From: an uncultured Klebsiella sp.
GTDB lineage: Bacteria; Myxococcota_A; UBA796; SXON01
Direction of reading: 5' to 3'
NCBI GenBank assembly: GCA_964359125.1
Contig: CAYHRZ010000001.1
Location: 1-49,105, forward strand
DNA: 49,105 nucleotides
The first letter of the stretch is position 1, and each line of letters begins with the position of its first letter. The notes beneath the pieces are model-generated. The model was not told where the DNA came from, did not search any database, and saw nothing but the letters and a program-made list of their open reading frames with translations. Shown piece after piece: positions 19,555 to 36,864 of this stretch. A program made the translations under genes and the position numbers.

Positions 19555-20583
19555 ATGCCGATCTGGTCCTGCGCGCTACCTGTCCCCACTCGCCCCTCCG
19601 GGCGCGTGCTCCACGTCGTGGAGCGGGTGTGGGCCAAGATGCGCGAACAACCCGAGATGGCCGGGCCCACCCTGTCGCGACAGCTCCGCGAGGATCGCAG
19701 CCTGGGCGCCAAGGAGCGGCCGGTCGCGGGCGACATGCTGCTGGGCATGATCCGCCACCAGGCGGCGCTCGGACGGCTCCACGCCGAGCCGGTGTCGGCC
19801 TGGCTGGCGCTCTGCGACGGCGTCCCCGATCTCCCCGATCCCGACGACGAGGTCGATGCCTACGCCGTGGCGCTGTCGTTGCCCCGCGACCTGGCGGCCG
19901 AGTGGTGGACCCGCCTCGGCCCCGAGCGCGCCGTGGCCCTGGCCCAGACCCTCGCGGGCCGGGCCCCGGTGTGGCTGAGGGTGCTGCGCGATCCTGTCGG
20001 CCTCGAGATCCCTCACCACCGCGAGGGGTTGTCGATCCGCCTCGACGGTCGCGCCAACGTCACCACGCTCGCGGCCTACCGAGAAGGCCGGGTGGAAGTC
20101 CAGGACCTCGGCAGCCAGCGGATCGCCGAGGCGGCGTTTCCCGGCGCCGGCGGCACGGTGCTGGACCTCTGCGCGGGCGCCGGCGGCAAGTCGCTGGCGC
20201 TGGCGGCGATGGGGGCGAAGGTCACAGCCTGGGACAGCCGTCCCGGGGCGCTGCGCGAGCTGGAAAAACGCGCCGGGCGCTGCGACCTCCACGTCGAGAT
20301 CGCCCCGCCCTCGGGCAGCTACGACGTGATCCTCGTCGACGCCCCCTGCTCCGGGACCGGCGTGCTGCGCCGTCACCCGGAAACCCGCTGGCGGCTCTCG
20401 TTCCACGTGGAACAACAGCGCGCGCTCCTCGAACGCGTTCGCGGTCGCGCCGCCCGCGTCGTGTACGCTACCTGCTCGCTGGCCCGCCGCGAGAACGAGG
20501 AGGTCAGCGGGGTCGAGGGCACCACGCTCTGGCCCGAGCCCCTCGGCAACGATGGCTTCTACATCGCGGTGGTGGGCGGCTAG
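19555..20583 (+). CDS. RsmB/NOP2/Sun-family RNA (cytosine-C5) methyltransferase
   Basis: VLDLCAGAGGKS SAM motif, DAPCSGTG and YATCS catalytic Cys motifs. The start is uncertain (GTG 19552, ATG 19555 or GTG 19606). Confidence 0.8.
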   Translation: MPIWSCALPVPTRPSGRVLHVVERVWAKMREQPEMAGPTLSRQLREDRSLGAKERPVAGDMLLGMIRHQAALGRLHAEPVSAWLALCDGVPDLPDPDDEVDAYAVALSLPRDLAAEWWTRLGPERAVALAQTLAGRAPVWLRVLRDPVGLEIPHHREGLSIRLDGRANVTTLAAYREGRVEVQDLGSQRIAEAAFPGAGGTVLDLCAGAGGKSLALAAMGAKVTAWDSRPGALRELEKRAGRCDLHVEIAPPSGSYDVILVDAPCSGTGVLRRHPETRWRLSFHVEQQRALLERVRGRAARVVYATCSLARRENEEVSGVEGTTLWPEPLGNDGFYIAVVGG

Positions 20584-23400: not shown

Positions 23401-23827
23401 GGCCGGCCCGGCGCTTCGCTTCGATGTTGCCCGCGGTGTAGGCCACCAAGAGGTACAGCGGCAGTTCCACGTAGAACCACGGCGGGCCCTTGATGGTCAC
23501 CATGTTGATGACCCCGCCCAGGAGCGACAGCGAACCGACGATCATCGCCAGCAACACCGGGCGGGAGCTCCCGAGCCGGGCCGCGATCCAGCCGCCCAGC
23601 GAGGCCTGGCCCAGGTGCGCCACCATCACCACGAGGAAGGCCGCGGTGGGGAGGGTGTCGAGGTAGGCCTGGAAGGCCACCGGGTCCTCCATGCTCGCGC
23701 CGGCGGGCATGGGGAACAGCACGAAGGCGTTGAGCGAGATCAGCGCGCCGTTGAAGAGGCTGCCCACGAAGAGGCCGAGGAGCGTAGCGCCGATGTTGCG
23801 TAGCACGAGGTTGAACCCGGGGAGCAC
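23384..23827 (-). CDS. Hypothetical integral membrane protein (4 predicted TM segments)
   Basis: 147-aa ORF with four hydrophobic stretches and good GC3. No family recognised. Confidence 0.6.
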   Translation of the reverse strand: MLPGFNLVLRNIGATLLGLFVGSLFNGALISLNAFVLFPMPAGASMEDPVAFQAYLDTLPTAAFLVVMVAHLGQASLGGWIAARLGSSRPVLLAMIVGSLSLLGGVINMVTIKGPPWFYVELPLYLLVAYTAGNIEAKRRAGLKPPA

Positions 23828-34074: not shown

Positions 34075-34476
34075 TCAGCGGGTGGTCCCGAGCGCGACCG
34101 CGACGTCGGTCTGGGCGAAGTCGCGACCCTTGAACAGCAGCGGTTCACCACTCGACCGGCTCAGTGCGTAGGCGAAGGTGTCGCCGAAGTTCAGACCAGC
34201 GGGGTGGCGGCCCTTCCCGAACCGCCGCCACGCTTCCCGCGCGATCTCGGCCTGTGCCGCGGTGACCGCGACCACGTCGACGCCGGCCCGGTGCAGCATG
34301 AGGTCGAGCTCCCTCCCCCCGGGCTCACCCTGGCGCGACTCCACCACCAGCGCGCACTCCAACAGCGTGGCGGCGGAGACCAGGCGCACCGGGTCCGCCT
34401 CGATGGCGCGACAAAACGCCAGCGCCTCGGGCTCCCCGAAGAGGATGGCGGAAACCGCCGAGGTGTCGAGGACCAT
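34075..34476 (-). CDS. vapC: PIN-domain toxin VapC
   Basis: MVLDTSAV with acidic PIN residues, 133 aa. The start overlaps the vapB stop by 1 nt. Confidence 0.9.
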   Translation of the reverse strand: MVLDTSAVSAILFGEPEALAFCRAIEADPVRLVSAATLLECALVVESRQGEPGGRELDLMLHRAGVDVVAVTAAQAEIAREAWRRFGKGRHPAGLNFGDTFAYALSRSSGEPLLFKGRDFAQTDVAVALGTTR

Positions 34477-34721
34477 CAGCGTGGCAACCCGTGCTCGTCG
34501 TACTCGACGCCGTCGCCCGGGCCCACCACGGGGAGCGCCGATGCCCGCCGGCTGATCTCCATCAACGCCTCGTGCAGCGGGCGGGGGCGGGCGATCCCTT
34601 CCAGCCGACGGAGCCGCTCCCTCAGGGCGTTGATCACCGCCTGGGTGAGCGTTTCGCCGGTGTGCGCGGCCAGCTTGCGAGCGAGCTCGTCGGCCTCGGC
34701 GCTCTTGATGCTCAGGGGCAC
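34476..34721 (-). CDS. vapB: VapB-family antitoxin (Rv0623/PSK-type)
   Basis: [39 protein letters not shown] start preceded by GAGG. A TATAGAAT-like -10 element lies upstream (plus-strand 34741-34748). Confidence 0.85.
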
Positions 34722-34788
34722 TTTCTACCTCGTCAGGAAGATTCTATACATGGGAGGCACGGTGTCAACCGTCGGTCCCAGCGCACGG

Positions 34789-34803
34789 GCGCCCCACGTG
34801 GGA
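34789..34803. repeat. CCCACGTGGG-core repeat, copy 1
   Basis: GCGCCCCACGTGGGA, read directly; intergenic. Confidence 0.8.
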
Positions 34804-35231
34804 TGTGGATCCTCGCCGTGGCGACGCGAACTACGGGGGCTCTCGCTGCCGGTCAGCGGCAGCGCGAGGATGGGCGTCGATCCCCGCGTCGGAGCGGACC
34901 CACCGGCGCCAACAACCGGAACGACTTGGCCGGTTCTTCCCGGAGGACGTGCGCGACCTGGAACGGGTGCACGTCCTCCCCAGCATGCAGCTCCCTGCCG
35001 CAAACCCACGGTAGGCACATCGAGAGTCGGCGACGGCCACGCCGCTCACGGTACACCGCGACATGCCACGACAAGTACCCGACCTCGGATTCCTGGAGGA
35101 AAGAGGCAATCGGGGTCGTTCCCACCTTCACCGGGCGCCAACGCACCATCATCTTGCCGTGAAGATCCTGATCGACCCCCAGACTTGAGGTGGCGCCGGC
35201 TCCCGGGCATTTCCAAGCCACACGAGTCCTT

Positions 35232-36371
35232 TCACCCGCCATCGAAAAAACTCGAGTGGTTTTTCACCGGTGGTCGAAAAATCTCGTGTGACATCCCGAA
35301 GTCGCGCCGGGGCTCCCCAAGGCCGCCCCACGTGGGTCGCCGACCCTCCCGGTGGGTGACGGTGAGCGCGCCGCCCTCCCCCCGCTCCACGCCGAGACCC
35401 CCGAGGTGAACGGCCCGGTGGTGGGCGGAGCACAGGACAGCGAGGTTTTCGTCGCCGTGGTCGCCACCGTGTGCGCGGAAACGGAGGTGGTGGACGTCGA
35501 GCCACAGCCGGTTTGCACAGCCAGGCACCTCGCAGCTTTCGCCCGCCCGGTGCAGCACCCGGCGCCGGGTGGCGGGCGGGATCACCCGGCTCAGTTGGCC
35601 AGCCGCGGGGCCGGGCGCGGTGTTCAAAACCTCCGCGTCACACGCGGCCTCGGCCGCCACCGTGTCGGAGAGGTCGTGCTCTGGCGTGCGCGCGTGGCCA
35701 CACTCGGGGCAACGTTCCACCACCACGCGGTAGCGCTCGGCGGAGACGCCGGCCTCGGCACCCTCGTCGTGCAAGTAGCGATGCGCGAGGGCCGCCAGCA
35801 AGGCGCCGTCGTCGATCTCCTCGGCGTCGAGTTCGGAGCGACTGCGGAGCACGGCCAGCGCCCGGCGGATGGTGTCGAGGTCCGCGGCGTCGAGTTCGAG
35901 AACCAGTCGGCCGCGCTCCGGGCCTGGCTCATCCATCGCCTCGCGGGTGGGCGGAAGTTCGCCGGGCGACGAACGTGCCACCTCGCGCTCCAACTCCCGC
36001 GACGTGACACTCAGCGCGCGACCTACCCACGCCGCCTCGGTGCCGGGCGTGGCGACGGTGATCACCTCTCTGGCCTTCGTCCAGTCGAGTTCGCCCTCGC
36101 ACATCGCCTGCGCCAGCAGCGGCAGCCGCGGCAGGGCACGACCCACGCGCACGAGGTCCCGGCAGGCGCGGAGCGACAAGTCGAGCACCACCTCGGCGTA
36201 CTCGGCAGTCGAGGCGTAGCCGAGCTCCTCGTAGCCACGCGTGTGCGCGAGCTCGGCGAGGAGGGTGGCCAGCGCGTAACCGGCCAGGCGATGCTGCCGC
36301 CGGGCCTCGAGGAGGCGCTCGTGGAGCGCCTGGGCGGGGGATGTTTCCATGGCCCCGAGCGTAATCGTCAC
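35232..36371 (-). CDS. HNH endonuclease with DUF222-type N-terminal domain (REP13E12-like protein)
   Basis: CEVPGCANRLWLDVHHLRFRAHGGDHGDENLAVLCSAHHRAVH is an HNH motif. The long helical N-terminal domain is typical of DUF222. The last ~35 codons run through an AT-rich structured region and may not be functional. Confidence 0.8.
   Translation of the reverse strand: MTITLGAMETSPAQALHERLLEARRQHRLAGYALATLLAELAHTRGYEELGYASTAEYAEVVLDLSLRACRDLVRVGRALPRLPLLAQAMCEGELDWTKAREVITVATPGTEAAWVGRALSVTSRELEREVARSSPGELPPTREAMDEPGPERGRLVLELDAADLDTIRRALAVLRSRSELDAEEIDDGALLAALAHRYLHDEGAEAGVSAERYRVVVERCPECGHARTPEHDLSDTVAAEAACDAEVLNTAPGPAAGQLSRVIPPATRRRVLHRAGESCEVPGCANRLWLDVHHLRFRAHGGDHGDENLAVLCSAHHRAVHLGGLGVERGEGGALTVTHREGRRPTWGGLGEPRRDFGMSHEIFRPPVKNHSSFFDGG
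35323..35346. repeat. CCCACGTGGG-core repeat, copy 2
   Basis: CCGCCCCACGTGGGTCGCCGACCC, a 23/24 match to copy 3. Lies inside the 3' end of the HNH ORF. Confidence 0.8.
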
Positions 36372-36666
36372 ACGGTGGGGAGCAAGGCCTTGCCGACCAA
36401 AAAATGGTCGTCATCACCTGCGATCCCCGCAACCGGAGATCAACCGTCACCTTCGACCCCGCTCGTCAACGGGCGCCTCCCCGCGGGGGCGGCGCGGAGC
36501 GTTGTTGCGACGGCGAGGTCGGCGGCCGGCTGATGTCGCGGTGGGCGACCTTGTCTGGCGACACCCCGGCGGGGACGTAGGGGCAGGGCGGTTTGCCGCC
36601 GGGCAGGGCGCTGCCACGCCCGGTGCTCGCGGCGCGCGGAGCCGCGACTTCGCCCGACCCGGCCAC

Positions 36667-36690
36667 GCGCCCCACGTGGGTCGCCGACCC
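36667..36690. repeat. CCCACGTGGG-core repeat, copy 3
   Basis: GCGCCCCACGTGGGTCGCCGACCC; intergenic. Confidence 0.8.
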
Positions 36691-36763
36691 ACGCACACGG
36701 CCGGACTGGCGCACACCCGCGCCCGCGACGCCGCCACGCGCCGCGCCCGGCTGCCGTTCCTGT

Positions 36764-36778
36764 GACCCACGTGGGTCG
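36764..36778. repeat. CCCACGTGGG-core repeat, copy 4 (14-bp perfect palindrome GACCCACGTGGGTC)
   Basis: Read directly; intergenic. Confidence 0.8.
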
Positions 36779-36845
36779 TGAACTTCGAACCCAACGATGG
36801 GGCGACGGCAGGCCGCCAGCGCGAGGGGACGCCGCTCCCGGCCAA

Positions 36846-36864
36846 GCGCCCCACGTGGGTCGTG
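36846..36864. repeat. CCCACGTGGG-core repeat, copy 5
   Basis: GCGCCCCACGTGGGTCGTG; intergenic. Confidence 0.8.

Follow-up and report, generated by a model that had tools for sequence, protein, structure and literature searches.

A palindrome linked to a DUF222-like/HNH nuclease gene and dispersed in an uncultured myxobacterial genome

The REP13E12 repeats of Mycobacterium tuberculosis contain a phage attachment site, and the 13E12 genes of this bacterium drive genome rearrangement. Genes of the DUF222-HNH ('13E12') type are very common, and an N-domain profile alone retrieves ~12,000 clusters of them. In M. tuberculosis, these genes bear palindromic LexA boxes (PMC3381160) and are under LexA/RecA_NDp control (PMC3381160; PMC13157036). 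Here, we analysed a DUF222-like/HNH nuclease gene and the palindromes in and around it, which are located in a 49,105-nt stretch of DNA (contig CAYHRZ010000001.1) that is referred to as the window. By protein family and damage control the closest published kin of this locus is REP13E12, for the logic of a nuclease with dispersed palindromes it is REP/RAYT, and for the likely mode of recognition it is ParB-parS. We consider it probable that the palindrome (G)CGACCCACGTGGGTCG(C) is the cognate double-stranded site of the nuclease and that the gene makes up, with its sites, a selfish and probably damage-induced cassette.

The window is contig 1 of a metagenome-assembled genome (MAG; G000) of 5.8 Mb, which comprises 859 contigs, has a G+C content of 71% and is 85% complete. 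In what follows, C-numbers (C170, C433 etc.) denote contigs of G000, other G-numbers genomes of relatives and L-numbers individual loci, of which L051 is a Logan contig. Motif counts in 41 relatives were obtained with the 14-mer GACCCACGTGGGTC allowing at most one mismatch, and the reversed pattern served as control. A wider sample covered 301 genomes of the phylum.

The palindrome in the window, in homologs and across genomes

An earlier, sequence-only reading had described five copies of a repeat centred on a palindrome at the HNH gene and had not seen this palindrome elsewhere in the 49 kb. We found exactly five cores CCCACGTGGG at 34793, 35327, 36671, 36766 and 36850 (span 34793-36859) and no other in the window, so that both observations hold; the copy positions of that reading are the starts of the extended consensus. 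When the window was shuffled with preserved dinucleotide composition, a mean of 0.32 cores was obtained and none of the 100 shuffles reached five. The HNH open reading frame (ORF) occupies 35232..36371 on the minus strand, with a likely start ATG at 36350. Copy 2 (35318..35348, core 35327-35336) is located within the 3' end of this ORF, in the codons R-P-T-W-G, and copy 3 (36651..36692, core 36671-36680) lies 309 bp upstream of the ORF start. These two copies, which had been noted as nearly identical, form a direct repeat with an identical 23-nt stretch. Copy 4 (36750..36780, core 36766-36775) is, as had been seen before, a perfect 14-bp palindrome (GACCCACGTGGGTC). Copy 5 (36830..36864, core 36850-36859) forms a 33-nt repeat with copy 3 (88%) and is located ~100 bp upstream of the start (36960) of a MopE/FG-GAP lipoprotein gene. 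Copy 1 (34784..34821, core 34793-34802, GCGCCCCACGTGGGAT) has 38 nt in common with copy 2 (76%) and lies ~25 bp upstream of the -35 element of the vapB promoter.

A lack of the motif around HNH paralogs had been named as a result that would speak against a link to the gene. The only close paralog in G000 (C170, 72%) is likewise bracketed by the motif, at its 3' end and at a distance of ~200 bp on the upstream side. In L051, which comes from another metagenome and whose homolog is 72% identical, the motif lies 114 bp upstream of the gene and again at its 3' end. All three pairwise DNA alignments of window, C170 and L051 end within 3 bp of the 3' core, and the homology of the window to both 72% homologs stops at 35324, at palindrome copy 2. 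The conserved part of the HNH ORF ends at this position and its last 31 codons are unrelated read-through; past the 3' core, each of the three ORFs runs ~30-50 codons into unrelated sequence.

When we mapped the motif (at most one mismatch) on 49 distinct near-full-length homolog copies, we observed peaks at -300..-200 (14 hits), +400-500 (10), +600-700 (11) and +900-1100 (18), with a background of 0.02-0.05 per 100 bp elsewhere in these copies. Which positions are preferred depends on the clade; they are located in linkers, loops and the tail. In the protein tails of 115 homologs the motif is read as PTW (5), [TPAS]HVG (24) or PRG (14), which corresponds to all three frames, and therefore the constraint is on the DNA and not on the protein. 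A protein-level constraint on the 3' copy was rejected for this reason. In distant members of the family these peptides recur in tandem in variable loops. In L112 the constraint was confirmed on the DNA: GACCCACGTGGG lies within the part for the HNH domain, and the tail contains a tandem of five degenerate 15-nt units. In G013, gene copies are homologous from the upstream palindrome onward, and upstream or downstream of HNH genes there are arrays of 51-93-bp units that all have the palindrome as their start. We also noted in this genome arrays of a ~77-bp unit that consists of the palindrome and a second G+C hairpin (GGGGCGGGCGTCCCGCCCGCCCC), and the last 93 nt of the gene in tandem duplication, with the palindrome at the start of every duplicate (L046 (G013:C205), 611-1265 of L025; L006 1559-1880).

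The core sits in the 16-18-bp palindrome (G)CGACCCACGTGGGTCG(C), and the half-site matrix is informative out to position -8/-9. Confinement of the motif to the locus, which the sequence-only reading had implied, applies within the window but not genome-wide, since G000 contains 64 cores (~31 expected from base composition, zero-order). About half of the 64 show no flanking similarity and lie within ordinary coding DNA; these unextended cores are chance background. In some 30, the core is extended by GA on one side or on both (GA-core-TC), and almost all of these lie in DNA without coding periodicity. There are ~25 further copies in G000 that are solitary and mostly located in non-coding-looking DNA, several of them 0-100 bp from a gene's stop codon. 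Since the solitary copies have only ~20 bp in common, we rejected their interpretation as miniature inverted-repeat transposable elements. The five sites beside or inside the two HNH genes of G000 all deviate at position -6 in one half-site (CGCCCCAC or CGTCCCAC), and the gene-linked variant of the palindrome is CGCCCCACGTGGGTCG. At this position, the consensus is found in copy 4, an additional upstream copy, and in most of the solitary copies. One possibility is that the deviation protects the gene-linked sites from self-cutting. As a separate observation, a perfect solitary palindrome (C52:3945), which is followed by a tRNA gene, lies 152 bp past the end of a gene of another HNH family (C52:2841-3794; Pfam HNH_2, 317 aa), and three ~70-bp repeats lie upstream of this HNH_2 gene.

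Next to the linkage within loci, site and gene co-occur across genomes. The 14-mer was counted 30 times in G000 (control 2), 46 times in G013 (2), 14 times in G016 (1) and 11 times in G039 (2), and G007, G031 and G006 contained seven, six and five copies. For nearly all gene-less relatives the count was 0-2 (controls across the set 0-6). Most sites of G016 are located ~240 bp upstream of HNH genes or gene fragments. In the phylum sample, 9 of the 12 genomes with at least six sites and a control of at most two contain the family, compared with 55 of 301 overall. The G270 lineage (36% identity, 30 matches) is without the window-type site; instead it contains CCCTCGAGGG 64 times (control 5), with at least 12 copies inside its own HNH genes, and thus the palindrome changes with the protein lineage. 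Examples of CCCTCGAGGG in HNH copies of G270 are found in L072, L078, L080 and L082 at +729..+797. An operator of host LexA or of another global regulator was rejected because same-genus genomes are without sites.

The HNH protein, its predicted fold and its promoter box

The HNH protein consists of an N-terminal helical domain (~residues 12-205), a zinc ribbon (221-224) and an HNH region (~262-325). The Pfam HNH model gave 16.6 bits, which is below the cut-off of 21.4; PHROG HNH families matched the protein with up to 9e-10, and in a profile search of the PDB, IscB, McrA and a group II intron maturase were matched in their HNH domains (~1e-4). Eight residues (C280, C285, H294, H295, C314, H317, H318, H322) are invariant in 48 homologs. 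In spite of the low Pfam score, the C-terminal HNH domain with its metal-binding and catalytic residues is plainly recognisable. The label DUF222 had been assigned in the sequence-only reading. Neither the HNH protein nor four homologs matched Pfam DUF222 (PF02720) even at E≤10, and taken literally the label lacks direct Pfam support. In substance it stands indirectly, since a profile of the N-terminal 200 residues retrieved 11,980 cluster representatives (50% identity), many of them with two tandem N-domains, and matched P0186 and P0198 at ~1e-40 to 1e-43. These two, out of 10 scanned proteins, pass the DUF222 gathering score (28.7 and 27.3 bits vs. 24.4). Such intermediate sequences link the HNH protein to the DUF222-HNH (M. 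tuberculosis '13E12') superfamily, within which it is probably a divergent branch.

Members of the family are found in several copies per genome, with a patchy distribution and often as fragments. Among 40 relatives, we counted 5-34 matches per genome and none in most same-genus genomes, and G000 has two close copies and one distant member. The idea of a multi-copy HNH family is borne out by these data, and the palindrome is specifically tied to this patchily distributed family. The distant member (C64:12472-14193, minus strand) has 574 aa with two tandem N-domains and an HNH domain and is of the type that passes Pfam DUF222 in relatives; no palindrome of the HNH-linked kind was found nearby. 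A PADLOC scan for known defence systems gave no match, and plasmid records yielded matches to the HNH domain only. The records of HNH-family homologs are labelled Myxococcota, Polyangiaceae or 'Deltaproteobacteria'. G+C-rich HNH genes of the myxobacterium type are also found on public contigs with the title 'MAG: Klebsiella pneumoniae' (L056-L059 etc., CAMAWH01 records), the organism label of which looks wrong.

AlphaFold modelled the protein with a pLDDT of 88 for the whole chain and of 93 for the N-domain. When the N-domain was searched with Foldseek, the top matches were almost all DNA-binding domains of ParB/Noc/Spo0J proteins (probability 0.93-0.99, target-normalised TM-score (TMt) 0.56-0.67, root-mean-square deviation 2.5-4 A, ~100 aligned columns). 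In hhalign, the same helices came to lie in register with ParB, with LRIGRxLPxLP opposite LRLLKLP of ParB and GxLxWTKARE opposite GxISAGHARA. Pfam HTH_ParB did not match the HNH protein, nor was there a Pfam match to the N-terminal CTPase domain ParB/Srx, and the model begins directly with the helical domain. Taken together, a ParB-type helix-turn-helix (HTH) fold of the N-domain is a moderately supported prediction, weak in score but consistent.

The palindrome itself resembles parS. The canonical parS is TGTTCCACGTGGAACA, and the consensus for M. xanthus is TGTTCCACGTGGAACG (PMC3778016). The HNH-linked site has the centre CCACGTGG in common with M. xanthus parS; in the outer arm, two positions of each half-site are different. 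The affinity of M. xanthus ParB dropped ~tenfold when two bases of a single parS half-site were changed from TT to CC (PMC3778016). G000 contains 11 canonical parS sites within two mismatches, one of which adjoins parB on C743 (C743:27). We found ParB in 23 of 25 relatives; the HNH-linked site is not near-universal. The window contains two canonical parS cores (GTTCCACGTGGAAC) at 20400-20413 and 23464-23477, one of them perfect and one with a single mismatch, and it may lie in the origin-proximal parS region.

At 36394..36410 (minus strand), ~25-45 nt upstream of the HNH start, we found the box CGACCATTTTTTGGTCG, which is conserved in C170 and L051. Its general form is CGACCATTTTTTGG(TCG) with a length of 14-17 nt. 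The sequence CCATTTTTTGG occurs in 11 exact copies in G000, with ~0.25 expected (zero-order), and all copies are oriented toward the downstream gene. The box is located 20-80 nt upstream of recA, ssb, recC, an sbcD-like phosphoesterase gene, priA, genes for an IMS-family (ImuB/DinB-like) polymerase and an XPB-like helicase, and both HNH paralogs; box-bearing contigs are C482, C128, C500, C424, C20, C172, C48, C40 and C349. It looks like a candidate promoter or operator element of a DNA-damage or repair regulon of this lineage, and its presence at the promoter takes the promoter-operator role away from the palindrome. The HNH copies of G152 (genus g102; L085-L088) have in common a different element, ACTTG(T/C)CATGTGTTCAGTG, ~30-70 nt upstream of their starts. 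This element resembles the M. xanthus LexA box (CTRHAMRYBYGTTCAGS) and would be a further hint of damage control in the family.

Possible function of the palindromes and alternative explanations

If the palindrome is the cognate site of the nuclease, the N-terminal ParB/Noc-like HTH domain would dock as a dimer on the parS-like palindrome, and the C-terminal HNH domain would nick or cut the DNA nearby. The cassette, which is multi-copy, patchy and often decayed, would probably be induced along with the DNA-damage/repair regulon. What the data show is that palindrome and gene are associated in sequence and across genomes, that the constraint acts on the DNA, that the site is specific to the lineage and that the promoter box is shared; binding and cleavage of the site, induction by damage and the route of spread are inferred. 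Repair of breaks at the sites would account for the arrays in which site-bearing units are repeated in tandem, for the sites in the gene's own loops and at its 3' end, for the end of homology between copies at the site and for solitary sites being scattered through gene-carrying genomes. Single-strand folding of the five window copies was no better than that of shuffles (z -0.8 to +0.15) and terminator-like sites were not found at these copies; a role as hairpin or terminator was rejected on both grounds. Since hairpins of the window copies are not unusually stable, recognition of the site in duplex form is favoured, and a conserved duplex sequence near the gene fits recognition by a dimeric HTH protein. 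Between 34000 and 37500 there was no credible Rfam match, so that neither a group II intron nor a guide RNA of the IscB type is likely there.

Several observations weigh against this interpretation. The Foldseek E-values for the ParB matches are only 0.2-1, and hhalign against 23 ParB HTH domains from relatives gave a probability of 2.4% (P=0.019). Three genomes (G148, G293, G142) contain 6-11 sites without a detectable HNH family member, and four of the sites in G148 lie in repeat units around an IS256-type transposase gene. Conversely, G002 and G133 bear the HNH gene and have only two sites each. A clean pair of filled and empty loci was not found among the same-genus genomes, the flanks of the C170 copy and genus g102, the flanks being on different contigs. 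The compared genomes are akin and are not independent samples, and the co-occurrence carries no formal P-value. Because of the fragmentation of G000 into 859 contigs, 'solitary' sites at contig ends may adjoin unassembled gene copies. The transposase locus of G148 (L111, G148:C12:1-3999) is remarkable in its own right, as the IS256-type gene is flanked by units ~235 bp apart, each with GCCCCACGTGGGTC.

The selfish HNH element with its own repeats, as proposed in the sequence-only reading, has stood as regards the palindrome, which is tied to a multi-copy family, but not as regards vapBC, which is not part of the conserved layout: other family copies have other neighbours. In the window, the vapBC pair (34075..34721) consists of the toxin gene vapC (PIN domain, 34075-34476, minus strand) and of vapB (PSK_trans_fac, 34476-34721, minus strand), the latter with a strong sigma-70-like promoter at 34741-34768. 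Contigs of other assemblies with an identical VapB come from the same population and have arbitrary ends. The gap between palindrome copies 1 and 2 is filled by a 129-aa ORF (34853-35242, minus strand) without a family match in Pfam, PHROG or PADLOC, which may be a remnant or no gene at all. At the stop codon of the HNH ORF, outside the paralog-conserved region, there is an A/T-rich pair of 29-nt repeats in tandem/direct and inverted arrangement (35219..35290; TTTCACC..TCGAAAAA.CTCG.GTG), the A/T-richness of which is unusual in a genome with 71% G+C.

Toxin-antitoxin genes adjoin sites in the window and on C188. L051 is syntenic with C433 of G000 (~80% nucleotide identity), and the same CxxCxxCC and Peptidase_M1 genes form the borders. 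Between them, L051 contains the HNH cassette, and C433 contains a perfect solitary site 25 bp past the stop codon and a vapBC pair. The junctions of L051 and C433 do not align, and the comparison shows a common hot spot and not a clean filled/empty pair. The vapBC cassette of C433 (C433:2667-3371) has 81-82% DNA identity to its copies in two same-genus genomes (G008:C210 and G004:C53), compared with ~73-75% for the flanking housekeeping genes, which suggests that this cassette has moved horizontally. No palindrome was found near the vapBC homologs in G008 and G004, which lack the HNH gene, and the toxin-antitoxin cassette was rejected as carrier of the palindrome for this reason. As a possible but speculative extension, the locus might represent a REP/RAYT-like system built on another enzyme, in which a ParB-fold/HNH nuclease would seed a lineage-specific palindrome in its own gene, beside the gene and chromosome-wide via damage-induced cutting and repair, and in which solitary sites would act as exchange hot spots for small cassettes (toxin-antitoxin pairs, the nuclease gene).

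The palindromes might alternatively be transcriptional operators for the HNH gene, vapBC and the lipoprotein gene, recognized by a separate regulator or by the HNH protein as autorepressor, with no role in cutting or spread. Copies do lie upstream of the three window genes, 72 bp (vapB), 309 bp (HNH ORF) and 100-190 bp (lipoprotein gene) from the starts, the upstream copy at about -200 recurs in homologs, and the 13E12 genes of M. tuberculosis provide a precedent with their palindromic LexA boxes (PMC3381160). However, the motif is also found at the 3' end, in coding loops, in all three frames and in tandem arrays, and many solitary sites directly follow the end of a gene. Close to the promoter, another element is conserved, namely the box that the HNH gene has in common with recA and ssb, and same-genus genomes without the HNH gene have no sites, which does not fit a conserved host regulon. 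The operator sites for an unknown regulator that the sequence-only reading had offered as an equal option are a poor fit for the same reasons, and we regard this explanation as rather unlikely.

It is also conceivable that the palindromes are REP-like extragenic hairpins, which are spread or kept independently of the HNH protein (by mRNA 3'-end protection or another enzyme), and that HNH genes insert nearby. The ~25 solitary copies in non-coding-looking DNA, several of them 0-100 bp from stop codons, fit this idea, as do the arrays of 77-bp units in G013, which resemble bacterial interspersed mosaic elements, and the sites without gene in G148. A perfect solitary copy folds well (-14.3 kcal/mol, z -3.7), but the five window copies fold no better than shuffles. 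In addition, the solitary copies are limited to ~20 bp of common sequence, with no REPIN doublet and no GTAG/CGTC head, and the single Y1_Tnp match in G000 (C157, 25.6 bits) has no extended palindrome beside its Y1 gene. The number of sites goes with the HNH gene, and the core differs between HNH lineages. Taken together, these data leave this explanation only a slim chance.

A further alternative is that the sites are secondary parS-like loading or binding sites of the host ParB, acquired by HNH genes by chance or for hitch-hiking. The common centre CCACGTGG and the presence in G000 of ParB (C743) and of canonical GTTCCACGTGGAAC sites, one of them in the window at 20400, are in line with this assumption. 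We consider it very improbable, since ParB is present in 23 of 25 relatives and enrichment of the extended site is restricted to genomes with the HNH family, since the outer arm differs from parS at two positions per half-site and a two-base change in one half-site of M. xanthus parS lowered ParB affinity ~tenfold (PMC3778016), and since the core of the G270 lineage is non-parS. Finally, chance occurrence in a genome of 71% G+C, with the 3' copy as by-product of a conserved C-terminal peptide, would account for the ~30 of 64 cores without extension in ordinary coding DNA (zero-order expectation ~31 10-mers), but deserves practically no credence given five copies in 2 kb (0.32 expected), the three-frame reading across homologs, which excludes a peptide constraint, and 30 copies of the 14-mer vs. 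two of the control.

Comparison with known systems

The HNH protein and REP13E12 of M. tuberculosis have the same layout, in which the N-domain is helical and the zinc-ribbon HNH domain comes after it. In both cases the repeats are multi-copy, measure ~1.2-1.4 kb and have damage-tied promoters, with LexA boxes or RecA_NDp there (PMC3381160) and the candidate recA/ssb/recC box here. The present HNH protein differs in being below the Pfam gathering scores for DUF222 and HNH. In the literature searched, we did not find a statement that a cognate palindrome exists at the ends of 13E12 or as dispersed solitary copies, nor did we find a paper that links HNH/DUF222 genes to cognate dispersed palindromes. 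A DNA site that covaries with the protein lineage gives the DUF222-HNH family a candidate activity, which would be to bind and cut a palindrome.

ParB-parS, Noc-NBS and KorB-OB, which use palindromes of 13-16 bp, are similar in that the N-domain is predicted to have a ParB/Noc-like fold, the 16-bp palindrome contains CCACGTGG, and sites are found in and beside the protein's own gene. Unlike the ParB family, the protein described here has no ParB/Srx CTPase domain and has an HNH domain attached. Moreover, its sites are not clustered near parAB, and the gene is patchy and multi-copy, whereas the ParB-parS system is universal and single-copy.

Free-standing HNH homing endonuclease genes, including I-HmuI, are likewise selfish, patchily distributed HNH genes with a specific DNA site, which in our case is predicted. 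Nicking enzymes of the I-HmuI type also act on DNA that already carries the element. Classical homing involves one site in a conserved gene that is destroyed on insertion, whereas we found full sites on both sides of the HNH gene, inside it and at tens of other loci, and no homing event was seen.

With REP/REPIN-RAYT systems the locus has in common that a nuclease gene is flanked by short G+C-rich palindromes with further intergenic copies, that gene and palindrome co-occur by genome (with the exceptions G148, G293 and G142) and that mosaic arrays are formed. The differences concern both partners. The enzyme is an HNH nuclease with a predicted HTH-type domain and not an HUH/Y1 transposase (IS200/IS605-type), and its gene is multi-copy and decaying, whereas RAYT genes are single-copy. 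The sites number ~30 and are mostly single and 16-18 bp long, compared with hundreds of RAYT repeats of 20-40 nt; they lack the GTAG/CGTC head and the REPIN doublet, and the gene-linked copies are poor hairpins. This suggests a route by which short palindromes may populate a genome without a RAYT-type transposase, and the promoter data point to a DNA-damage regulon box in an uncultured myxobacterial lineage. The genome-by-genome co-occurrence of gene and site, the solitary sites, the comparison with parS within one genome and the box in common with repair genes are new here.

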